Source: a virus
Taxonomy: Duplodnaviria; Heunggongvirae; Uroviricota; Caudoviricetes
Reading direction: 5' to 3' (one strand)
Length of the DNA: 46,766 nt
IMG/VR virus record: IMGVR_UViG_2877958089_000004
The notes under the pieces were generated by a model. The model was not told where the DNA came from. It ran no database searches and was given only the letters and a program-made list of their open reading frames with translations. Both the position numbers and the translations under genes were made by a program. Position 1 is the stretch's first letter; every line of letters begins with the position of its first letter. This document shows, piece by piece, positions 1 to 45,518 of this stretch.

Positions 1-933
1 ATGGACAACGACAAAATTGATCAACACAGCGACGAAATTGAAGTTGAGAGCGAAGAAAAAGAGCGCGGCAAAAAAATAGAAATAGATGAAGACCGACTCC
101 CCTCCCGGGCGATGGCAATTCATGAGCATATCCGCCAGGATGGTGAAAAAGAGCTGGAACGCGACGCAATGGCGCTACTGTGGTCAGCCATTGCGGCGGG
201 TCTGTCGATGGGCGCTTCGTTACTGGCAAAAGGGATATTTCATGTCGAACTGGAAGGTGTGCCGGGCAGCTTCTTACTGGAGAATCTCGGTTATACCTTT
301 GGTTTTATTATCGTCATAATGGCCCGCCAGCAATTATTTACCGAAAACACCGTGACTGCGGTACTACCCGTCATGCAAAAACCGACAATGAGCAACGTCG
401 GCTTACTTATGCGATTATGGGGCGTCGTGCTGCTGGGTAATATTCTCGGGACAGGTATTGCTGCATGGGCATTTGAATATATGCCTATCTTCAATGAAGA
501 AACTCGCGATGCATTTGTCAAAATCGGCATGGATGTGATGAAGAACACCCCCAGCGAGATGTTTGCCAACGCGATCATTTCCGGCTGGCTGATCGCCACT
601 ATGGTTTGGATGTTTCCTGCTGCGGGTGCGGCAAAGATTGTGGTGATTATATTGATGACCTGGCTTATTGCACTGGGTGACACCACCCACATCGTTGTCG
701 GTTCTGTTGAAATCCTCTATCTGGTGTTTAACGGCACGCTGCACTGGAGCGATTTCATCTGGCCCTTCGCACTACCTACTTTAGCGGGGAACATCTGCGG
801 CGGCACCTTTATCTTCGCGTTAATGAGTCATGCACAGATTCGTAACGACATGAGCAACAAGCGTAAAGCAGAAGCACGCCAAAAAGCAGAACGTGCGGAA
901 AACATTAAGAAAAATGATAAAAACCCAGCATAA
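1..933 (+). CDS. yfdC: Formate/nitrite transporter family inner membrane protein YfdC
   Basis: 310-aa ORF starting at window base 1; multi-TM protein recognised as E. coli YfdC; sits immediately upstream of argW as in E. coli K-12. Confidence 0.85.
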   Translation: MDNDKIDQHSDEIEVESEEKERGKKIEIDEDRLPSRAMAIHEHIRQDGEKELERDAMALLWSAIAAGLSMGASLLAKGIFHVELEGVPGSFLLENLGYTFGFIIVIMARQQLFTENTVTAVLPVMQKPTMSNVGLLMRLWGVVLLGNILGTGIAAWAFEYMPIFNEETRDAFVKIGMDVMKNTPSEMFANAIISGWLIATMVWMFPAAGAAKIVVIILMTWLIALGDTTHIVVGSVEILYLVFNGTLHWSDFIWPFALPTLAGNICGGTFIFALMSHAQIRNDMSNKRKAEARQKAERAENIKKNDKNPA

Positions 934-1008
934 ATGGCGAGGGTTTAAGCAATCGAGCGGCAGCGTACTTACCCCGCAGTCCATTAGCGGGTATACTCAT
1001 GCCGCATT

Positions 1009-1083
1009 GTCCTCTTAGTTAAATGGATATAACGAGCCCCTCCTAAGGGCTAATTGCAGGTTCGATTCCTGCAGGGGACACCA
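1009..1083 (+). tRNA. argW: tRNA-Arg (anticodon CCU)
   Basis: 75-nt sequence GTCCTCTTAGTTAAATGG...GGGGACACCA; D-arm, anticodon loop CCCCTCCTAAGGG with CCT anticodon, T-arm GGTTCGATTCC and 3' CCA are all readable. Confidence 0.9.
1069..1083. repeat. attL core: 15-bp direct repeat CTGCAGGGGACACCA (tRNA 3' end)
   Basis: Exact 15-bp copy recurs at 45062-45076, downstream of the torI-like gene. Confidence 0.8.
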
Positions 1084-1244
1084 TTTATCAGTTCGCTCCC
1101 ATCCGTACCAGTCCGCAAAATCCCCTGAATATCAAGCCTTCCGTAGATTAACAGTTCGTAATGGTTCGCGTCAGATCGTTGACAGCCGCACTGCATGACG
1201 GGTAAAAAGTGGATAAAATAATTTTACCCACCGGATTTTTACCC

Positions 1245-2402
1245 ATGCTCACCGTTAAGCAGATTGAAGCAGCAAAGCCGAAAGAAAAACCATACCGCCT
1301 TCTCGATGGTAATGGCCTGTACCTTTATGTCCCTGTATCAGGGAAAAAGGTATGGCAGCTTCGCTACAAGATTGACGGTAAGGAGAAAATCCTGACCGTA
1401 GGAAAATATCCGCTAATGACTTTGCAGGAGGCAAGAGATAAAGCATGGACCGCGAGGAAAGACATCTCGGTTGGCATCGATCCGGTAAAAGCGAAAAAGG
1501 CTTCGTCTAACAACAATTCCTTTAGTGCCATTTACAAGGAATGGTACGAGCACAAGAAGCAAGTCTGGTCAGTAGGCTATGCAACTGAACTTGCCAAAAT
1601 GTTTGATGACGACATTTTACCCATCATCGGCGGTCTTGAGATTCAGGATATTGAGCCGATGCAACTGCTGGAAGTAATCCGCAGATTTGAAGATCGCGGT
1701 GCAATGGAGCGAGCCAACAAAGCCCGCAGAAGATGCGGCGAGGTTTTCCGTTACGCCATTGTCACTGGTAGGGCTAAATATAACCCGGCACCTGACCTTG
1801 CTGACGCCATGAAGGGATACCGCAAGAAAAACTTCCCGTTTCTTCCTGCAGACCAGATCCCGGCATTTAACAAAGCACTGGCAACATTTTCAGGAAGCAT
1901 CGTATCGCTCATTGCGACCAAAGTTTTACGCTACACAGCCCTAAGAACGAAAGAGCTTCGTTCCATGCAATGGAAGAACGTCGATTTTGAAAACAGGATT
2001 ATCACTATCGACGCCAGTGTGATGAAGGGACGCAAGATTCATGTTGTCCCGATGTCGGACCAGGTGGTTGAACTTCTCACTACGCTAAGCTCAATCACCA
2101 AACCAGTATCAGAGTTTGTTTTTGCCGGGCGTAACGATAAGAAGAAGCCAATCTGCGAGAACGCGGTATTGCTTGTGATCAAACAAATCGGCTATGAGGG
2201 TCTGGAAAGCGGTCACGGATTCAGGCACGAATTCAGCACGATTATGAACGAGCACGAATGGCCTGCTGATGCTATTGAAGTGCAACTGGCACATGCCAAC
2301 GGCGGATCTGTGCGCGGGATTTACAACCATGCTCAGTATCTCGATAAACGCAGAGAAATGATGCAATGGTGGGCGGACTGGCTTGATGAAAAGCCTGAGT
2401 GA
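1245..2402 (+). CDS. intS: Tyrosine integrase, IntS/P4-like family
   Basis: 385-aa product from MLTVKQIEAAKPKEK...; recognised as the E. coli KplE1/CPS-53 IntS; an in-frame ATG at 1209 is an alternative start. Confidence 0.9.
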   Translation: MLTVKQIEAAKPKEKPYRLLDGNGLYLYVPVSGKKVWQLRYKIDGKEKILTVGKYPLMTLQEARDKAWTARKDISVGIDPVKAKKASSNNNSFSAIYKEWYEHKKQVWSVGYATELAKMFDDDILPIIGGLEIQDIEPMQLLEVIRRFEDRGAMERANKARRRCGEVFRYAIVTGRAKYNPAPDLADAMKGYRKKNFPFLPADQIPAFNKALATFSGSIVSLIATKVLRYTALRTKELRSMQWKNVDFENRIITIDASVMKGRKIHVVPMSDQVVELLTTLSSITKPVSEFVFAGRNDKKKPICENAVLLVIKQIGYEGLESGHGFRHEFSTIMNEHEWPADAIEVQLAHANGGSVRGIYNHAQYLDKRREMMQWWADWLDEKPE

Positions 2403-2553
2403 TCCACCTTAACAACTATCGAATAGCACAAAGCCTTGCAATCCAGTGCAAAGATTTGTGTGTCAGAGTTTTTCTCATCAACTACCGCAAGTATCGATCG
2501 ATTGAGACTTGGATGATAGACTTCATGCCTTTGATTATTAGCTGATAGAAGAA

Positions 2554-2916
2554 ATGTTAAAGCTATTTGCAAAGTACACCTCGATTGGTGTGCTGAACAC
2601 ACTTATACACTGGGTGGTTTTTGGTGTATGTATCTATGCCGCGCATACCAATCAGGCTCTGGCAAACTTCGCAGGTTTTGTTGTGGCTGTGAGTTTTAGC
2701 TTCTTCGCGAATGCAAAATTCACATTCAAAGCATCGACTACAACGATGCGCTACATGTTATATGTCGGGTTCATGGGAACACTGAGTGCAACTATTGGAT
2801 GGGCTGCTGATAGATGTTCACTTCCTCCAATTGTCACTCTCGTCACCTTCTCCGCCATCAGCCTGGTGTGCGGTTTCGTCTATTCAAAGTTCATTGTCTT
2901 TAGGGATGCGAAATGA
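2554..2916 (+). CDS. gtrA: GtrA-family bactoprenol-linked glucose translocase (flippase)
   Basis: 120-aa small 4-TM protein, first gene of a three-gene gtr operon next to the integrase. Confidence 0.85.
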
Positions 2917-3830
2917 AGATATCTCTTGTAGTTCCTGTCTTCAATGAAGAAGAAGCGATACCAATTTTTTATAAAACGGTACGTGAATTCGAAGAGTTGA
3001 AGCCATATGAAGTGGAAATTGTTTTCATAAATGATGGAAGCAAAGACGCTACGGAGTCAATTATTAATGCTATGGCTGTTTCAGATCCCCTAGTTGTTCC
3101 GCTGTCATTTACGCGCAACTTTGGTAAAGAACCAGCATTGTTTGCAGGGTTAGACCATGCAACTGGCGATGCCGTGATTCCAATTGATGTTGACCTGCAA
3201 GACCCGATTGAGGTCATTCCTCATCTTATTGAAAAGTGGCAGGCAGGTGCTGATATGGTGCTGGCAAAGCGTTCAGACCGCTCTACAGATGGACGTCTAA
3301 AGCGAAAAACTGCTGAGTGGTTCTATAAGCTCCACAATAAAATAAGCAACCCAACGATTGAAGAGAATGTTGGTGATTTCCGGTTAATGAGCCGTGAGGT
3401 TGTCGAAAATATCAAGCTTATGCCAGAGCGCAACCTTTTTATGAAAGGGGTACTGAGTTGGGTAGGAGGATCGACCGACATCGTCGAATATTCCCGCGCA
3501 GAACGTGTTGCTGGTAATTCAAAATTCAATGGATGGAAATTGTGGAATCTTGCGCTCGAAGGGATTACAAGCTTCTCAACATTTCCCCTGCGCATATGGA
3601 CTTATATCGGGTTAGTGGTAGCTGTCCTAGCATTTCTGTATGGCGCATGGATGATATTTGACACGCTCGCATTTGGAAATGCTGTACGAGGATACCCTTC
3701 ACTGCTGGTGTCCATTCTGTTTCTTGGAGGAATACAACTAATCGGTATAGGCGTGCTCGGAGAGTATATAGGACGTATCTACATTGAAACAAAATCAAGA
3801 CCTAAATATATTTTGAAGGCCAGAAAATGA
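2913..3830 (+). CDS. gtrB: GtrB bactoprenol glucosyltransferase (family 2 glycosyltransferase)
   Basis: 305 aa; N-terminal GT2 domain (VVPVFNEEE...DGSKD...DVDLQDP) with C-terminal TM segments; start overlaps the gtrA stop. Confidence 0.9.
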
Positions 3831-5257
3831 ATTTCAATTCTTTTTTTAAACAGCGAGTTACTATAATTATAGGATTGGCTTATGCATTGCCTATAGTTTT
3901 GAATGGCATCGATTACATTGATGATATGGGTAGGGCCATATCTGGGTATGGATGGAGTGACGACGGTAGATTTGTATCAACTTTATTAATGCAGATATTG
4001 TCATTTAGCGACAAAGTATTGCCACTTTTCCCTTATGCGACTATATTATCTGTAATAATAACATGCTTTTCAGGATTCATTATTTCAGAATTATTTTTCA
4101 AACATTCTAAATATAAATTTATTTTTTCTTTAGTGTTACTAACATCACCTTTTTTTCTTGAAAACCTATCATACAAGTATGATTCTCTACCTATGTCGCT
4201 TTCTGTTTTAATGGCAATAGTACCTTTTACATTATACAGAAATCATATATTTATCCCGATATCAATACTTTGTCTTGTTGCTGTATTGGGATTGTATCAG
4301 ACTACGTCTATGTTATATTTCGCCGTGACAATATGTATTATCATGTCTTCTGTATTAGACGGTAAAAATAAGACAGAATGTTTTAAATTAGCATGCAAGA
4401 CACTAGTGTCATTTGTTGTTGCATTTTTAATATATAAGTCATTAGTTCTTTTGCTAGCATTAAATGTTCCTCGCTCGCAATTTATAAGCATAAACAGCGA
4501 AATACTTAATTTATTAATAGAAAGAACAAAGCATTTCCATATAATGTTAAAGGCTCTTTTTGATAGTGGGTATTTTATTGCCTCAGCACCATTTGTAATT
4601 CTGTTTGCAATGTCTTTAGTTTATCTTCTGGCATTAAGAAAATCATTAACTATATTTTTCATTATAGTATTATGCTTTATGTCTTTGTTAATATTGACAA
4701 TGATGCCAAATATTTTGCTAAAGGAGATTTTTTACACAGCCAGAACTATGATTTGTTTTCCAGCAATTATTATTGCAATGCTTATAGTTATGGATCGATG
4801 TAAAATTGAAAACGTCAATAAGCTTTGCTTTATATTTGTTATATTATTAGTGAGTTACTCTTTTTCACTATCTGCAAAACTTGGGGCCGTAATAAAAAAT
4901 AACAATGAGGCTAGCAATTACTTTGCGGGAAGAATAACCTCTGATATCTCAACGATAGATTCGTCGGATACTTACAAAATTGTAATCTCTGGTAGAGTAC
5001 CGATTAGCGCTAAAAGCAAGCTATTATATAATGAAACTCCATTTTTAAATTGGCTTGCCCCTGTTTATGCTTCTGGTGGTTGGGGGTGGGGGGTCGTAGA
5101 TCTTTCAAGATATGCAGATTTCAAATGGCAGGAAAATGAAACATTTATCCTACAAAACAAATGCCATATTGCTCCATTATTTAGCAATAAATTTTATGCC
5201 ATAAGAAAGAAAGATAACGTATATATTATAGATTTTAACTACAAAGATTGCATATAG
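3827..5257 (+). CDS. Serotype-specific O-antigen glucosyltransferase (GtrC-type polytopic membrane protein)
   Basis: 476-aa highly hydrophobic protein, strongly AT-rich, third gene of the gtrAB operon, where the variable serotype-specific enzyme lies. Confidence 0.7.
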
Positions 5258-5262
5258 TAATA

Positions 5263-5308
5263 TGCCTACCCATTTATAATTTAAAACATTTTACGAATGG
5301 GTAGGCAG
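5263..5308. terminator. Hairpin between convergent gtrC and tailspike genes (possible bidirectional terminator)
   Basis: 12-bp inverted repeat TGCCTACCCATT / AATGGGTAGGCA with an AT-rich 22-nt loop, exactly between the two convergent stop codons. Confidence 0.45.
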
Positions 5309-5319
5309 CTATTAGGAGA

Positions 5320-7197
5320 TCAGTTAATCCTTATTTTTACAGCAGTTCCAGTTCTATATAACGCCCCAACACCGACACCGACACCGTAATTTTGCGGTGT
5401 ATCATCAGGCACATCCCTAAACACAAATCCTCTCAAAACATCTCCGCTATCGTATGCATAGTTATTAACATATGATCCTCCATTGACGCTCCTTGGTTTG
5501 TTAGATATAGAGTTATCTATTACTCTTGTTTCTGCGCCATCAGTATAAATAGAATACTGACCAGAGCAATCAACAAGCTGACCATCTATAGTAACTTTCC
5601 CTTTATTGTTAAGAACCTTAACAGCAGCAAGGCGCGGGCCATACATAGGGTAAGATGGATCTGGGGCATCGTTTGGGAATGTAGCATGAATAGTCCCATT
5701 AAAATATAAATCCATGTTGCTATTTGCTCCAAAAACCAATACTGCCGCATCATCATTTTTCAGGGAGCCGGCACCATTTATTTTCAACGAGCTAAATATA
5801 TTATTCACACCGTATCCAGATCCATCGCCAATAGCTACAATAGCGGCTCGTTTAAAAATATCAAACCACATACCTGTCATAGTTAACCATGACGTAGCGA
5901 CCATGTGAACACCTATACGACAATACTCTATTTTACCTCCAATAAACGAATTTCCGAAGTTTGGTCCACAAGCCACAGCCGCACCTCGATAATCATATAC
6001 ATCATCTTCGTCAAAATAAGTTTCCCCATGATAACCAATATCATTGAAATAGCAGCCTATGAAAATACTATCTGACAATGTAAATCGTGAAAGGATGCCA
6101 TTTTCTTTAAGAGTGGTAAACTGGCATAGTGTGACCCGCATTAAACCAGCCATATCAGAACGCAGACCAATTAATGCATCTCTAAAAACACAGGCCGTTA
6201 TCTCATGATTATGATAAGCAACTGTTTGCTGTGACCTGTCTCCATATTCAATACACGTGCAATTTGAAGCTGAGCCATCAATGTCAATATACGAAATAGA
6301 TGTCTGTTTTTTCTTTCTCACATCAACAATAGGATCTGCATATCCAATAGTATGGTCATCTGCTAGCTTAAGTGTAGATTTAAGATTAAAACCTGATGAA
6401 GAGTAAGCCCACGCAGATTTGATGCCTGTGAGAGCCTTGTTATCTTGCATAACTACAGGTGTCTTAATAAACAAATACCTGTCTACTAGCACCTCAACCC
6501 CATACGGACTGTTCAGAGCTTTATTTATTGGTATAGCGTTATCGGTTTCGGGACCTGGCTTAGCTCCGTAAAAAATCGCATTCAGAGGTCCATTGAAAGT
6601 CCCAGCATACAATCCATCCCTCACAACCTGACCTACCGCTCCAGTATTAATGACAATACCATCATCTGGATCTAGGTTTCGATTGCTGTAATATGTGAAA
6701 CGCCCCCCAGCTAAATCGCCAGTTTCGAATCCGTATTTCGCTATAATAATTGTTCCGTCTTCAAAATCATCTCCTGTTTCGGCAGCAATATCTACGTATC
6801 TGAATCCTAGTCCGCCAATAAGTGTATATCCATTTTCCCCTTCAATTAACCCCCTAAATTGATCTGGGTCATACTTAATTATGTTTGGATAGTAGAACTG
6901 CTGTGTACCATACGCATCATAAACAGCCATAGAATGGCCTTGCACAGTTACGAACTTGGCAATCTGTCCGTTATATACCGGATATCCAGCAGCATTAATG
7001 ATGATTGGTTGCGGAACAGGAACGTGAGAGCCGTCTTCGTTCTCCACATAAACCTGAATCTGGTTTTCAGGATTTACCGGGTCAGTGTCAATTTTACCGA
7101 TATAAATTTTGCCATTAGCTACGGCTTTAAAAGAACGCGCCATAGTGAAGAGTTGCGAAGGCATGCTTACCACAACATTTGCGGTGATATCTGACAT
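5320..7197 (-). CDS. Tailspike protein: P22-type head-binding N-terminus with a divergent receptor-binding domain
   Basis: N-terminus [46 protein letters not shown] closely matches the conserved P22/Sf6 tailspike head-binding domain; the rest differs from P22. Start placed at the ATG at 7197 with a GGAG RBS; the ORF track extends to 7245. Confidence 0.85.
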
Positions 7198-7318
7198 TTC
7201 ATTGCTCCAGACGAATGATATGATGCAACCATGAAGAGATTGCATACCGAAATGGTACTATTGAGTATTTATCCAGTAAGTTACGATGCCATTCCACCCA
7301 ACTGGTGAGGCATCAAGG

Positions 7319-7579
7319 ATGTACAGCAAATACGACGAGGCGCAGTTTCACTTGAGACTTCCGCATGAACTCCACGCGAAAATTAAACAGCGCGCGAAGA
7401 TGAATAACAGGTCGCTGAACTCAGAGATAATTGCAGCGATTGAAGAATCATTGGATAAACAAAGCTCTGCATCAGTTTACATTGACGATGCAGAGCGTAT
7501 GGCAGAACAACAATCGGATATGGTTAAGAAAATTGTCTTTGATACGCTCAAGAAGCTATATAAAAAAGACAGTAGCTAA
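7319..7579 (+). CDS. mnt: Mnt/Arc-family ribbon-helix-helix repressor
   Basis: 86 aa; FHLRLPHELHAKIKQRAKMNNRSLNSEII...AERMAEQQSDMVKKIVFDTLKKLYKK resembles P22 Mnt; lies between tailspike and gp16 homologues as in the P22 immI region. Confidence 0.7.
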   Translation: MYSKYDEAQFHLRLPHELHAKIKQRAKMNNRSLNSEIIAAIEESLDKQSSASVYIDDAERMAEQQSDMVKKIVFDTLKKLYKKDSS

Positions 7580-7596
7580 CCATCCGTGGCTTTCCG

Positions 7597-11396: not shown

Positions 11397-12009
11397 TTAA
11401 AACAACGATCCAAGCAGGCCAAGTCCGCCGCCAATTGCCGCACCTAATCCAGTGCCAAGTCCGGGAACAATAGAGCCAAGAGCAGCGCCAGTCATAGCCC
11501 CTGAAGCTCCGCCGCTAATTGCTGTCTGAAGGCCTGATGGTTTATTGGCGTTAGCAGCGGCAAGTGCTGCGCTTTGCTGTGCAATGCTGCTCATGTTGTT
11601 GGCGTACGTCTGCCCGGCGTTTGCCTGACCTTGCAGCGCACCAAGCCCAACGTTTGCCAGATTGTTGTAATTGCTCATCTGATTTGATAACCAAGACTGA
11701 CCGAGTGTCGGAGCGATCGTAGCCAGTTGATTGCTTGTGGCTGTCGAACCAAGTCCACCCGTCGCCTCCGCAGCAGCAAGACTCTGGTAACGCGCCTGCC
11801 CTGCAAGGTCTTTATACTGCTGAGAGTTGTAATACTGATTAAGTGCCTGCCCCTGACCTTCTAAACTGGAAAGGTTCTGAAGCTGGTTAACATACTGCTC
11901 CGCAAGAGGCGTGAACGGAGCAAGGTTTTTCATGATCGTCTGCCACTGCTGATTTTGCAGATCTGCAGCATACTTCTGAGCTTCTGCTGCATACTTTGCG
12001 CTTTTATCA
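11397..12009 (-). CDS. Ejection protein, P22 gp7-like; 5' end lost in assembly gap (partial)
   Basis: Gly/Ala-rich C-terminus; the reading frame stays open upstream of the annotated ATG (…DKSAKYAAEAQKYAADLQNQQWQTI-MKNLAPF…) and runs into the N run at 12010. Confidence 0.6.
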
Positions 12010-12109: not shown

Positions 12110-12452
12110 AGAGAATCCTTAGCGTTGTGGTGAATGCGGCTCAGCGCACGCGGGTTAAGGTTGAGGCTGACAGTCGACCTTCTGTGGATACCCACCCGCC
12201 TGGTGTGCAACCTTCGCCAGGCACCGGGAGGCACCCGGCACCACAACTTTATGCTGTGTGTAGTCCTGGCGGTACCAGTTTGTACCCTTGCTTCCGGCTG
12301 GTACCGTCCTTTTTTGCAAAACAGAGAAGAGCATCACCGGACGACGGGCTCATAACCCAATCCATCCGGGCGGCTGCCACCGCAGGTGTTCTTCTCTGTT
12401 TTGTGGAGAAACCAACCGACCTTGCAGGGTCGATATGATGAGGAGCAGCAAA

Positions 12453-12815
12453 ATGGCTAGCGAACGCAGTACTGATGTGCAGGCATTTATCGGGGAGCTG
12501 GACGGCGGCGTATTTGAAACCAAAATCGGCGCAGTTCTCAGTGAGGTCGCTTCCGGTGTGATGAACACGAAAACCAAAGGGAAGGTCTCACTCAATCTGG
12601 AAATCGAACCGTTTGATGAGAACCGTGTGAAAATCAAACACAAACTCTCATATGTTCGCCCAACTAACCGCGGGAAAATTTCCGAAGAAGACACCACCGA
12701 AACGCCGATGTATGTCAATCGCGGTGGTCGCCTGACTATTCTGCAGGAAGACCAGGGACAATTACTGACTCTTGCCGGTGAACCTGACGGAAAACTCCGC
12801 GCAGCAGGTCGTTAA
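12453..12815 (+). CDS. yfdP: YfdP-like hypothetical protein
   Basis: 120 aa from MASERSTDVQAFIGELDGG... with GAGGAG RBS 7 nt upstream; recognised as a homologue of E. coli K-12 CPS-53 YfdP. Confidence 0.7.
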   Translation: MASERSTDVQAFIGELDGGVFETKIGAVLSEVASGVMNTKTKGKVSLNLEIEPFDENRVKIKHKLSYVRPTNRGKISEEDTTETPMYVNRGGRLTILQEDQGQLLTLAGEPDGKLRAAGR

Positions 12816-12880
12816 TATCGTTCGTAATAAACTGATTATTTATCTCATCACTGAATATCTTTATATAGTGAGGACTTATT

Positions 12881-13705
12881 ATGTCTCAGAACTTAGACGC
12901 AACCGCAATTAATCAAATCCATGCCCTTATTTCTGCTCAGGGTGTTAATGAAATTATCAGTAAGATTGGTGCCGATGCTGTGGCATTGCCTGAGAATTTC
13001 CGCATTCATGATCTGGAAAAATTTAATTTAAATCGCTTCCGTTTCCGTGGTGCACTTTCCACTGCCAGCATCGATGATTTTACCCGTTATTCTAAAGATC
13101 TTGCAGATGAAGGCACCCGCTGCTTTATCGATGCCGATAATATGCGTGCCGTCAGTGTGCTTAACCTGGGTACTATTGATGAGCCAGGTCACGCAGATAA
13201 CACTGCCACTCTCAAACTGAAAAAGACAGCACCGTTCTCTGCTCTGTTGTCTGTTAACGGCGAGCGTAACTCCCAGAAGTCACTGGCAGAATGGATCGAA
13301 GACTGGGCCGACTACCTTGTGGGCTTTGATGCTAATGGTGACGCCATTCAAGCAACAAAAGCGGCTGCGGCAGTCCGTAAAATCACGATTGAAGCAAACC
13401 AGACCGCTGATTTTGAAGATAATGACTTCAGCGGCAAACGCTCCCTGATGGAGTCTGTCGAAGCGAAGACCAAAGACATTATGCCAGTGGCATTTGAATT
13501 TAAATGCGTTCCGTTTGAAGGTCTGAAAGAACGTCCGTTTAAATTACGCCTCAGCATTATCACTGGCGATCGTCCTGTACTGGTTCTGCGCATTATTCAG
13601 CTGGAAGCGGTGCAGGAAGAAATGGCTAACGAATTTCGTGATCTGCTTGTTGAGAAATTCAAAGACAGCAAAGTAGAAACCTTTATTGGTACTTTCACCG
13701 CCTGA
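12881..13705 (+). CDS. yfdQ: YfdQ-like protein (DUF2303 family)
   Basis: 274-aa ORF, same length and recognised similarity to K-12 CPS-53 YfdQ. Confidence 0.75.
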
Positions 13706-13718
13706 TTTCATTACTGCA

Positions 13719-13745
13719 AATGCCCCTGCGGGGGCATTTATGGAA
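13719..13745 (+). terminator. Hairpin downstream of yfdQ (possible intrinsic terminator)
   Basis: AAATGCCCCTGCGGGGGCATTTAT: GC stem GCCCC/GGGGC followed by a short T-rich tract. Confidence 0.45.
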
Positions 13746-13832
13746 ACGTAATTAACTCAATAATCACCGGATGGTGAGGGCTTCCTTTTACCAGAATTCA
13801 GCGCGGTGCAGTGCATATACGTGGAGAACAAA

Positions 13833-14369
13833 ATGTCATTTATTAAAACTTTTTCCGGGAAGCATTTTTATTATGACAAGATAAATAAAGACGACATCGA
13901 TATTAACGATATCGCGGTTTCCCTTTCAAATATCTGTCGCTTTGCCGGTCATCTTTCGCACTTCTACAGCGTCGCCCAACATGCGGTTCTTTGCAGCCAG
14001 CTGGTGCCGCAGGAATTTGCTTTTGAAGCGTTAATGCATGATGCAACAGAAGCGTATTGCCAGGACATTCCCGCACCACTGAAACGCCTTCTTCCTGACT
14101 ATAAACGGATGGAAGAAAAAATAGACGCCGTAATCCGTGAGAAATACGGGTTACCCCCAGTTATGAGTACACCCGTGAAATATGCCGATCTCATCATGCT
14201 GGCAACCGAACGCCGCGATCTCGGGCTTGATGATGGCTCTTTCTGGCCTGTACTGGAAGGCATCCCGGCAACAGAGATGTTCAACGTGATTCCACTGGCA
14301 CCGGGTCATGCCTACGGGATGTTTATGGAACGTTTTAACGATTTATCGGAGTTACGCAAATGCGCATGA
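13833..14369 (+). CDS. yfdR: HD-domain phosphohydrolase, YfbR-like 5'-deoxynucleotidase family (YfdR-like)
   Basis: 178 aa from MSFIKTFSGKHFYY...; HD motif region (…HSVAQHAVL…MHDATEAYCQDIP…); start at 13833 chosen over the upstream in-frame ATG at 13806 to match the 178-aa YfdR length. Confidence 0.75.
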   Translation: MSFIKTFSGKHFYYDKINKDDIDINDIAVSLSNICRFAGHLSHFYSVAQHAVLCSQLVPQEFAFEALMHDATEAYCQDIPAPLKRLLPDYKRMEEKIDAVIREKYGLPPVMSTPVKYADLIMLATERRDLGLDDGSFWPVLEGIPATEMFNVIPLAPGHAYGMFMERFNDLSELRKCA

Positions 14370-14722
14370 ATGTTTTCGAAATGGAAGGGTTTCTTCGCGG
14401 GAAATGTGTACCGCGAGATCTGAAAGTGAACGAAACAAATGCTGAGTACCTGTTACGTAAATTCGACGCGCTTGAAGCTAAATGTGCGGCACTGGAAAAC
14501 AAAATAATACCAGTGTCAGCTGAACTGCCACCAGCAAATGAAAGTGTTCTGTTATTTGATGCTAATGGAGAAGGCTGGCTGATTGGCTGGCGTTCTCTCT
14601 GGTACACCTGGGGACAAAAAGAAACCGGAGAATGGCAGTGGACATTTCAGGTCGGGGACCTTGAAAACGTCAATATCACTCACTGGGCAGTAATGCCAAA
14701 AGCACCGGAGGCTGGAGCATAA
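14360..14722 (+). CDS. yfdS: YfdS-like hypothetical protein
   Basis: 120-aa ORF overlapping the yfdR stop; N-terminal domain paralogous to the ORF at 41557-42102. Confidence 0.7.
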   Translation: MRMNVFEMEGFLRGKCVPRDLKVNETNAEYLLRKFDALEAKCAALENKIIPVSAELPPANESVLLFDANGEGWLIGWRSLWYTWGQKETGEWQWTFQVGDLENVNITHWAVMPKAPEAGA

Positions 14723-14729
14723 TGACCAC

Positions 14730-14829
14730 NNNNNNNNNNNNNNNNNNNNNNNNNNNNNNNNNNNNNNNNNNNNNNNNNNNNNNNNNNNNNNNNNNNNNNN
14801 NNNNNNNNNNNNNNNNNNNNNNNNNNNNN
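14730..14829. other. Assembly gap (100 N)
   Basis: Run of exactly 100 N. Confidence 0.99.
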
Positions 14830-15178
14830 GGCCAATCATTGCGCAGTACATCTGACCGTGGCGGAATTTGCGCGCAGCGAACGATGTGACGCACTGAACG
14901 GTGGTGTTAGTCAGAATGTATCGCCAGAACGCCAGCCCGATTTCCTTGCTGAATCCGCGAATCTCTGGCAGGTACATGGCGTGGCAATCGAATGTCAGCG
15001 GCTGAATCTCCTGATAGTAAACAATGCCGCCAAACTGCCCGTGCACGTTCACCTCAAAGTAACGGCAATCAGGTTTGTAGTCGTATCCATCACCGTTGTT
15101 GCTCCCGGCAATAATGTCAGGGTGATTTCCGACTGCTTCGATCAGGTCGATGTTTCGCGTTGGTTTGAATGTAATCAT
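14830..15178 (-). CDS. P22 gp14-like ejection/assembly protein; 3' end lost in assembly gap (partial)
   Basis: ORF starts [23 protein letters not shown]... at 15178 and runs into the N run; position directly downstream of the tail-needle gene as in P22. Confidence 0.55.
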
Positions 15179-44665: not shown

Positions 44666-44720
44666 CCCGCCTCACACTCGATGAGGCATTTTCATTTATC
44701 AAGATATCCAGACCTACCAT

Positions 44721-44748
44721 CGCCGCATCAATGCGGTTTTTTTATTGC
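44721..44748 (+). terminator. Intrinsic terminator upstream of the torI-like gene
   Basis: CGCCGCATCAATGCGG hairpin followed by TTTTTTTATT. Confidence 0.55.
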
Positions 44749-44753
44749 CTGAT

Positions 44754-44769
44754 TTGCAGGTTCGATTCC
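44754..44769. repeat. 16-bp copy of the argW T-arm (TTGCAGGTTCGATTCC) upstream of the torI-like gene
   Basis: Exact match to tRNA positions 1054-1069; together with the attR core it makes up the tRNA 3' half, split by ~290 bp that contain the torI-like gene. Confidence 0.7.
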
Positions 44770-44788
44770 ATATTCGGAGATAGCACTC

Positions 44789-44989
44789 ATGCAACACGAA
44801 CTACAACCTGATTCACTGGTTGATTTGAAATTCATCATGGCTGATACTGGCTTCGGTAAAACCTTCATCTATGACCGGATTAAGTCCGGCGACCTGCCTA
44901 AAGCCAAAGTTATCCACGGACGAGCAAGATGGTTATATCGTGACCATTGTGAATTCAAAAATAAGCTCTTAAGCCGCGCCAATGGGTAA
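44789..44989 (+). CDS. torI: Excisionase / recombination directionality factor (TorI-like)
   Basis: 66 aa, MQHELQPDSLVDLKFIMADTGFGKTFIYDRIKSGDLPKAKVIHGRARWLYRD…; recognised as KplE1 TorI; last prophage gene before attR. Confidence 0.85.
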   Translation: MQHELQPDSLVDLKFIMADTGFGKTFIYDRIKSGDLPKAKVIHGRARWLYRDHCEFKNKLLSRANG

Positions 44990-45061
44990 AATAGCGGGTA
45001 AAATATTTCTCACATCTCAAAAACACCATTCCAATCAATCCCCTGCTGCCTCAAGTAGATG

Positions 45062-45076
45062 TCTGCAGGGGACACC
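45062..45076. repeat. attR core: 15-bp direct repeat CTGCAGGGGACACCA
   Basis: Identical to the 3' end of argW (1069-1083). Confidence 0.8.
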
Positions 45077-45518
45077 AGATACCCTTCAAACGAAATCTAC
45101 CTTCACCCCGTAAAAGATGGGTTTGGCAGCACACTTGCCTTATATCTACTCATTTTTACTGCAACAGGTTGAAATCTCAGCACTGTCAGAAAGCGCTGAT
45201 GACTAAACAGCCCTGAGCCGGGCGATGTAACCATCACACAGAATCCTGATAGCGAAATATGGCGTGACTCGATACTTCACTCCGCAATGCATTCCTTGAT
45301 GAATTCGCAGGACCGTGATACACGGGACAGGTCACTGAATGACGACAATGTCCTGGAAATCAGCGAACCGCGCATCTGAAGTACATTTGAGCGACTGTAC
45401 CAGAACATGAATGAGGCGTTTGGATTAGGCGATTATTAGCAGGGCTAAGCATTTTACTATTATTATTTTCCGGTTGAGGGATATAGAGCTATCGACAACA
45501 ACCGGAAAAAGTTTACGT

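Follow-up and report, generated by a model that had tools for sequence, protein, structure and literature searches.

What does the gtrABC-type cassette of an argW prophage do for its Escherichia coli host, and which sugar polymer does it modify, when the gene that should set its specificity is far from every characterised relative? The question is raised by a stretch of 46,766 nt from a virus of the Caudoviricetes (IMG/VR record IMGVR_UViG_2877958089_000004; below, the window, to which all coordinates refer), in which gtrA, gtrB and a third gene of the gtrC type lie between the integrase gene intS and a convergent tailspike gene. In our opinion, with a probability of roughly 0.8, these genes form a three-component extracytoplasmic glucosylation system, the lysogenic-conversion cargo of a P22-like argW prophage, whose acceptor is most likely the O23 O-antigen. 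New is only the third gene, a PF14264 allele that has not been characterised and that goes with O23 and with a single tailspike; in all else the cassette is of the textbook gtrABC kind.

The proposed mechanism follows the accepted Shigella/Salmonella gtr model (PMC7685785; PMC2909390). Gene content, protein families, fold, conserved motif and the links to the tailspike and to O23 genomes are observed; the activity, sugar, acceptor, linkage, expression and exclusion considered below are inferred. GtrB would transfer glucose from UDP-glucose onto undecaprenyl phosphate (Und-P) at the cytoplasmic face of the inner membrane, and GtrA would flip the resulting Und-P-glucose to the periplasmic face. 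There the third protein, through a D32-D33 motif in its first periplasmic loop, would place the glucose on one defined sugar of the O-antigen repeat, most likely that of O23, ahead of the ligation of O-antigen to lipid A-core. The added glucose would block the adjacent, presumably O23-specific tailspike, so that lysogens would be shielded from superinfection and their antigen would be changed. The operon would run from its own promoter and would not be phase-variable.

Gene order and the conserved gtrAB pair

The first line of evidence is the content and order of the genes. The initial annotation, made from the letters of the window and a list of open reading frames, had placed gtrA, gtrB and a 476-aa third gene directly behind intS; the reading frames found here have identical coordinates (Table 1), and only a 151-bp spacer separates the end of intS at 2402 from the start of gtrA. 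Four-nucleotide ATGA stop/start overlaps occur at both internal junctions, gtrA/gtrB and gtrB/third gene, and the three genes read as a translationally coupled single operon. This one prophage operon is situated between the att/int module and the gene for the receptor-binding protein.

The first-encoded protein belongs to the GtrA family (PF04138, 1.5e-13, 51.4 bits against a cut-off of 26.1; PHROG 2224 over the full length, 2e-70), and its grand average of hydropathy (GRAVY) is +0.90. The second-encoded protein is a GT2 glycosyltransferase (PF00535, 9e-31, 107.5 bits against a cut-off of 23.3; PHROG 34335/841, 1e-178). Both are conserved, as had been claimed. Thus, GtrA is 97.5% identical to GtrA of Escherichia phage HF4s, 95.8% to YfdG of E. 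coli K-12, 90–91% to the GtrA proteins of Shigella phages and 78% to P22 GtrA, while the corresponding values for GtrB are 92.7% (HF4s), 92.5% (K-12 YfdH), 91–93% (SfI, SfII, SfIV and SfV) and 89% (P22). In DNA, gtrAB together with the upstream spacer is about 84% identical to the same region of these four Shigella phages. The identity of GtrB to its P22 and Shigella counterparts points to glucose as the donor sugar.

Comparison with known systems shows which parts of the locus are shared. In the K-12 remnant CPS-53 (KpLE1), with the order argW-intS-yfdG-yfdH-yfdI, the attachment site, the integrase and the gene order are the same as in the window, and positions 1–3832 are 93.6% identical in DNA to the K-12 segment yfdC-argW-intS-yfdG-yfdH; the homology ends exactly at the junction of gtrB and the third gene. 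The likeness to CPS-53 that had been proposed for the cassette therefore holds for its position and for gtrAB, and it fails for the third gene: the window protein belongs to PF14264, whereas YfdI (443 aa) has no Pfam match, and the best BLASTP alignment of the two has an E-value of 2.2 over 57 residues. Moreover, CPS-53 has lost the tailspike and virion genes, whereas the window keeps a P22-like virion module.

Phage P22 resembles the window in the order gtrA-gtrB-gtrC, in the position of the terminator (a putative one in the window), in the convergent tailspike and in a conserved block comprising the −10 region and the site GATC-4. It differs in that its attP lies between int and gtrA, which brings int and gtr to opposite ends of the prophage, whereas attP of the window lies upstream of int, and in that it has a four-GATC, three-half-site OxyR switch that the window does not have. 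In the Shigella phages, attP is likewise annotated or placed between int and gtrA, and tail-fibre genes, not a P22-type tailspike, stand beside the cassette. Escherichia phage HF4s, a Lederbergvirus of E. coli 4s, has a layout identical to that of the window (xis-int-gtrA-gtrB-gtrC, followed by a tailspike gene on the opposite strand); it differs in its third protein, which has 410 aa and belongs to DUF6056 (PF19528), and in its tailspike, which is unrelated.

Family, fold and relatives of the third protein

The second line of evidence concerns the third protein, which the initial annotation had described as the variable element of the cassette, highly hydrophobic and encoded by a strongly AT-rich gene. 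This description proved accurate. The GC content of the third gene is 0.309 (0.268 at third codon positions), compared with 0.449 for gtrA, 0.430 for gtrB and 0.466 for the whole window; AT-richness is common to every third gene examined (GC 0.28–0.38), those of the Shigella phages included (0.32–0.33). The GRAVY of the protein is +0.72 overall, +0.98 over residues 1–377 and −0.23 over a hydrophilic tail of residues 378–476. In DNA of such composition 7.5% of codons should be stops, and a frame of 476 codons would stay open by chance with a probability of about 7e-17.

The third protein matches PF14264 (Glucos_trans_II) at 7e-34, with 117.8 bits against a cut-off of 30, over residues 24–316 and profile positions 4–316 of 317, and PHROG 4829 (‘GtrC-like’) at 8e-99. 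Comparison with known GtrC/Gtr-type enzymes, suggested earlier as a check, places it in one family with SfII GtrII and P22 GtrC, which score 106.6 and 117.0 bits with the same model. P22 GtrC (GtrC family I) is the only characterised third enzyme that BLAST can detect from the window protein (24% identity over 451 aa, E 8e-28). BLAST against YfdI, GtrI, GtrII, GtrIV, GtrV and HF4s GtrC gave no significant similarity, so that SfII GtrII shares the Pfam family of the window protein yet has no BLAST-level similarity to it. In a Pfam scan of the other third proteins, HF4s GtrC fell in DUF6056 as noted above, YfdI and GtrV had no match, and GtrI and GtrIV gave only weak matches to other GT-C-like families. 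By these comparisons, the name GtrC spans several lineages.

A single-sequence AlphaFold run of the third protein reached a predicted local distance difference test (pLDDT) score of 40 and was not used; it was replaced by a run from an alignment of 80 relatives, with a pLDDT of 95.8 and a predicted template-modelling score (pTM) of 0.94. In this high-confidence model, residues ~1–377 form a membrane glycosyltransferase of the GT-C fold, and residues ~378–476 form a soluble C-terminal α/β domain. Residues D33 and R306 are the same in all 80 relatives, and D32, R36, W43, R48, P108, N113, D119, Y157 and Q158 are nearly invariant. The motif D32-D33-x-x-R36 is located in a short helix (residues 31–39 of the model) that directly follows the first membrane helix (3–26); K8 and R10 lie at the N-terminus. 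Since GT-C enzymes keep their catalytic acidic motif in the first extracytoplasmic loop, D32/D33 are proposed as the catalytic site, on the periplasmic side of the membrane. The third protein thus combines the properties of a variable, AT-rich-encoded, polytopic GT-C protein with an acidic motif in what would be the first periplasmic loop.

These results bear directly on the idea that the third gene encodes an acyltransferase, or some other membrane protein mislabelled GtrC. The idea draws on the fact that the name covers non-homologous proteins, those of K-12, HF4s, SfI, SfIV and SfV belonging to other Pfam families or to none, and Salmonella ‘GtrC family II’ was later shown to be an acetyltransferase. 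The window protein, however, matches PF14264 alone, well above the cut-off, with no Acyl_transf_3 match at E ≤ 0.01; its model has the GT-C fold, and the acidic motif of the first loop is conserved. In silico, the idea is effectively refuted.

The relatives of the third protein are numerous and distant. A collection of 5.8 billion proteins holds one cluster of it at 99% identity, with 135 members, and the next relatives, at 39%, come from Citrobacter, Aeromonas, Proteus and E. coli; an exhaustive HMMER search found 1208 clusters (50% identity) at E ≤ 1e-3, the nearest full-length one being 38% identical. Sequenced phages contain no close copy, their best match being a protein of Cronobacter phage ENT47670 (27.6%). 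A sequence search of the PDB gave no match even at E ≤ 10, the family having no solved structure of the GtrC type; a Foldseek search with the model against the BFVD viral structures gave none at E ≤ 0.001, and neither GtrA nor the third protein nor the tailspike has an NCBIfam model. The relatives at 37–39% in E. coli and Citrobacter stand in loci composed of gtrA (120 aa), gtrB (305 aa), the third gene (474 aa) and a gene on the opposite strand; the last has a tailspike domain in Citrobacter and no Pfam match on record in the E. coli loci. Judged by sequence, the third protein is a distinct, uncharacterised lineage within a large, well-known family.

Association with one tailspike and with serogroup O23

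The third line of evidence is the association of the third gene with a particular tailspike and a particular serogroup. Of the 5426 complete E. coli genomes surveyed, eight have the third gene, and exactly these eight have the receptor-binding part of the tailspike. Full-length O23 wzy is present in 20 of the surveyed genomes, and these include all eight carriers. The O23 label derives from the RefSeq annotation of the O-antigen cluster of strain E10, whose wzy and wzx are both called ‘O23 family’, and from a published SerotypeFinder result for carrier CPWW7, typed as O23:H16, sequence type (ST) 453 (PMC10060365); NCBIfam has no model for O23 Wzy or Wzx. The E10 cluster (L011 17204–24046) comprises four glycosyltransferase genes (GT2, GT32, one unclassified and GT4), wzy, wzx and galE/gne, and the four glycosyltransferases together with WecA would predict a five-sugar unit.

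At face value, the occurrence of all eight carriers among 20 of 5426 genomes has a probability of ~1e-20, but the genomes are not independent, and for this reason the presence of the genes in two different contexts is the better argument for O23 specificity. In four genomes, they lie behind intS at argW. In four others, all pig-associated, they form the end of another P22-like prophage, one beside dacD (the sbcB-dacD site), without an adjacent integrase and with different neighbouring immunity genes. The block common to both contexts corresponds to window positions 2345–7211, is 98.8% identical, and extends from the final 58 nt of intS through the spacer, gtrABC and a hairpin to include the whole tailspike. 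In strain 2-1 (L002 5413–10863), which carries the gtrABC-tailspike block in the sbcB-dacD interval, the 58 nt from the 3′ end of intS are still present, which suggests import of the block from an argW-type phage. The prophage of strain 2-1 also carries ant, arc and an immunity gene of the Rap1a/Tai family.

Relative to other P22-like phages, the stretch from 3833 to ~6890 is unique; it lies between the conserved gtrB and the conserved head-binding domain of the tailspike, whose similarity to other P22-like phages resumes near 6893. Because such conserved sequences flank the unique stretch, exchange of the module by homologous recombination would be favoured. No Pfam domain is recognised in the receptor-binding part of the tailspike, whose sole phage relative is that of Escherichia phage GaoY1-9D (40.7% identity), a phage of avian pathogenic E. 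coli. On this evidence, the tailspike and the third enzyme would both be specific for the O23 O-antigen, and the third gene most likely encodes an O23-specific glucosyltransferase. A stronger proposition is that the third gene and the receptor-binding domain constitute a portable O23-specific module that splits O23 into glucosylated chemotypes (8 of the 20 complete genomes) and unglucosylated ones; for this we consider the odds to be about even.

Several considerations weigh against an O23-directed glucosylation system. The eight genomes probably represent about two independent acquisitions, not eight, and the module is present in only 8 of 20 O23 genomes; 13TMH22 and MS1050 are examples of O23 strains lacking the third gene. 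The window itself contains no rfb locus, its serogroup being deduced from genomes that are 99.8% identical to it over positions 1–7587, the match to E10 being uninterrupted. The link to O23 could also reflect a host range set by the tailspike alone, with the third gene hitch-hiking. In addition, a gene of 31% GC may be silenced by H-NS. The nearest characterised protein is only 24% identical (P22 GtrC), and the nearest in a sequenced phage 27.6%. Finally, Davies et al. saw no visible change of lipopolysaccharide (LPS) for two Salmonella GtrC families (PMC3688519), so that membership in the family is no guarantee of activity on O-antigen.

Some of these considerations would also allow a different target, such as the LPS core, the enterobacterial common antigen or a capsule, with the O23 link arising solely from a tailspike that restricts the phage to O23 hosts. 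The association with O23 is equally strong for the tailspike and for the third gene and cannot separate them; three-component systems of GT2, GtrA and GT-C proteins decorate many kinds of glycan (PMC11127046, PMC7389260), and two Salmonella GtrC families showed no O-antigen substrate (PMC3688519). On the other hand, SfII GtrII and P22 GtrC, both of the characterised PF14264 members examined, act on O-antigen, the latter on the galactose of the Salmonella O-antigen (PMC3688519). In addition, the third gene moves between two phage backbones jointly with the receptor-binding part. Furthermore, the gene occupies the tailspike-side slot in which P22-like phages hold receptor-modifying genes: gtrABC in P22 and HF4s, oac in Sf6 and neuO in CUS-3. 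A target other than the O23 repeat is, in our view, improbable, and the O23 O-antigen remains the favoured acceptor.

There is a precedent for such an acceptor in E. coli. In the O77 group (O17/O44/O73/O106), prophage gtr genes add a glucose side-branch to the O-antigen backbone and thereby diversify the serogroup (PMC7685785); the window cassette follows the same principle in a different serogroup, the two being likened here by description, not by sequence. For O23, the literature searchable here describes no role of prophage gtr glucosylation. Kapi1, an argW-integrating, P22-like coliphage that modifies O-antigen, was considered as a model and rejected, its authors having found no coding sequence annotated as O-antigen-modifying and only limited homology to known seroconversion proteins.

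Expression, prophage state and significance

Whether the cassette is expressed depends first on its promoter. Roughly the last 100 bp of the spacer (2457–2553) align with the spacers of K-12, HF4s, SfI, SfII, SfV and P22, the P22 sequence being far more divergent than those of E. coli and Shigella. The most conserved part holds the single GATC of this region (2496–2499), the counterpart of P22 GATC-4, and an extended −10 element, TGaTAGACT (2514–2522). Since P22 GATC-4 is located at −33 from the mapped start (PMC2909390), a start site is predicted near 2529, seven bases after the extended −10. It should be noted that a consensus scan for promoters and terminators gave no excess over shuffled sequence and nothing in the intS-gtrA spacer; the proposal is based on the alignment to the mapped P22 promoter. 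Thus, the operon seems to be transcribed from a promoter of its own that is conserved with P22 Pgtr.

Phase variation in P22 depends on two pairs of GATC sites, four in all, and on three OxyR half-sites that overlap them upstream of gtrA (PMC2909390), and a similar Dam/OxyR switch in the window would produce mixed populations of modified and unmodified cells. Such a switch could be suspected from the conservation of GATC 2496–2499 and the −10 region with P22 and from the presence of the signature in 43 of 59 Salmonella gtr operons (PMC3688519). Yet the only GATC sites of the window region are the one in the spacer and another at 2401, in the intS stop codon, and a scan of the spacer found no OxyR half-site with at least 8 of 10 matches. 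Applied to P22 as a control, the same scan recovers GATC 2085/2098 and 2149/2162 and half-sites at 2086, 2118 and 2150, 32 bp apart. Because the switch is absent, and because gtr operons that had a single GATC and lacked an OxyR site showed no phase variation (PMC2909390) and none is known for the gtr operons of Shigella (PMC3688519), whose spacer that of the window resembles, expression is predicted not to be phase-variable by the Dam/OxyR mechanism; the contrary is very improbable.

At the 3′ end of the operon, where the third gene and the tailspike gene converge, a hairpin lies between their stop codons. Its core stem of 13 bp, UGCCUACCCAUUU (5263–5275), pairs with 5295–5307, and its folding energy is −23.7 kcal/mol (z −4.8) on the plus strand and −21.5 kcal/mol (z −4.1) on the minus strand; a U-tract is absent on either strand. 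The annotated gtr terminator of P22 occupies the same position, and by this analogy the hairpin is a putative terminator. Another hairpin, proximal to intS (2426–2461), was not significant (z −1.0).

Table 1. Features of the cassette and of the prophage ends, in window coordinates
Feature	Positions	Strand	Basis or remark
yfdC (formate/nitrite transporter family), E. coli chromosome	1–933		window start
argW, tRNA-Arg(CCT)	1009–1083	+	ARAGORN
attL core, last 15 nt of argW, CTGCAGGGGACACCA	1069–1083	+	repeat search
intS, tyrosine integrase, 385 aa from RefSeq start	1245–2402	+	mechanical ORF (open reading frame) from GTG at 1209
intS-gtrA spacer, probable gtr promoter	2403–2553	+	alignment with P22 and relatives
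gtrA, 120-aa small membrane protein, putative flippase for undecaprenyl-phosphate-glucose	2554–2916	+	
gtrB, 305-aa GT2 bactoprenol (undecaprenyl-phosphate) glucosyltransferase (predicted)	2913–3830	+	Pfam, PHROG, identity
third gene (gtrC type), 476 aa, putative specificity determinant	3827–5257	+	
hairpin between convergent stop codons of third gene and tailspike	5263–5307	both	folding
tailspike gene, convergent	5320–7245	−	PF09008 Head_binding over residues 17–129
tailspike receptor-binding part	5320 to ~6850	−	
tailspike N-terminal head-binding domain	~6850–7245	−	
TorI/AlpA-like excisionase gene, precedes attR	44789–44989		PHROG 66
attR core, copy of argW 3′ end (same 15-mer)	45063–45077	+	repeat search

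With its Pfam domains Phage_integrase, Phage_int_M and Arm-DNA-bind_3, IntS is almost the same protein as the integrases of K-12 (99.5% identity) and HF4s (99.2%). A search for a long att repeat found none, only the 15-nt core being shared by the two ends; K-12 has the same attR remnant, annotated as pawZ, and positions 44669–45077 are 93.9% identical to K-12 torI-attR. With attL at argW and attR after the excisionase gene, attP must lie upstream of int, so that int stays beside gtrABC in the lysogen, as in CPS-53. A second match to argW, of 16 nt in the T-arm (ATTGCAGGTTCGATTCC-like; 1054–1069 against 44754–44769), is found inside the prophage upstream of the excisionase gene and may be due to chance or be a trace of an older att site.

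The virion module is similar to those of P22, Sf101 and CUS-3 (~95% identity), but it is interrupted. A plus-strand fragment of 2.3 kb (12434–14729), 97.8% identical to K-12 CPS-53 yfdP-yfdQ-yfdR-yfdS, is located within the minus-strand virion operon. On one flank, a gene 7-like ejection gene (11397–11933, minus strand) is without its first ~50 codons; on the other, a gene 14-like gene (14552–15178, minus strand) has its 3′ end, and with it the C-terminus of its product, replaced. In strain DETEC-P829, the two genes are contiguous and in normal order. The window prophage is thus rearranged and probably defective; it may have arisen by deletions from two argW prophages in tandem. Sister copies have other lesions: DETEC-P829 (L017 16826–18527) carries an IS3 inside the tailspike gene and a truncation after the capsid gene, and E10 (L001 10663–12354) has internal deletions of ejection and needle genes. 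In both of these sister copies gtrABC is intact and is annotated as functional. Directly beyond the tailspike, the window has a gene for an Mnt/Arc-type ribbon-helix-helix repressor (7286–7579, plus strand), with no ant gene beside it, unlike P22 and the strain 2-1 prophage.

This decay raises the possibility that the cassette is intact yet without effect, either transcriptionally silent, for example through H-NS or a weak promoter, or a prophage leftover that causes no detectable change of LPS. The rearranged state of the window prophage, with its truncated gene 7-like and altered gene 14-like genes, the IS3 and the deletions of the sister copies, and the failure of the consensus scan to find a sigma-70 promoter in the spacer are all compatible with silence. 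Moreover, K-12, which makes no O-antigen, keeps an intact yfdGHI nonetheless. Some Salmonella gtr operons modify their target only under constitutive expression, or never (PMC3688519). Against silence, all three reading frames are intact in 8 of 8 genomes while their phage neighbours decay in different ways, which suggests selection for the cassette; the promoter block, including the extended −10, is conserved with the mapped P22 Pgtr; and a frame of 476 codons in DNA of 31% GC cannot last by chance. We consider a silent cassette unlikely, though less so than the other alternatives discussed. The pattern fits a cassette that is retained as useful cargo rather than as part of a working phage, as in CPS-53.

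Prophage gtr cassettes are a main source of O-antigen diversity, and they bear on serotyping, on vaccine and phage-therapy targeting and on resistance to O-antigen-specific phages. No mechanistic novelty is expected from the present one. It is linked to one serogroup only, O23, to which belong ST453 O23:H16 isolates of pigs, poultry and human urine, in part with mcr-1. If the cassette is active, in silico O-typing by wzx and wzy only would miss a structural difference in ~40% of O23 genomes. The tailspike paired with it would serve, as it stands, as a reagent for O23-specific binding or cleavage, an activity that the cassette should block. If the third gene and the receptor-binding domain do form an O23-specific module, the third protein would be the first PF14264 enzyme of E. 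coli to which an acceptor is assigned, and the module would either account for a glucose branch of the published O23 structure or establish an O23 sub-factor not yet described.

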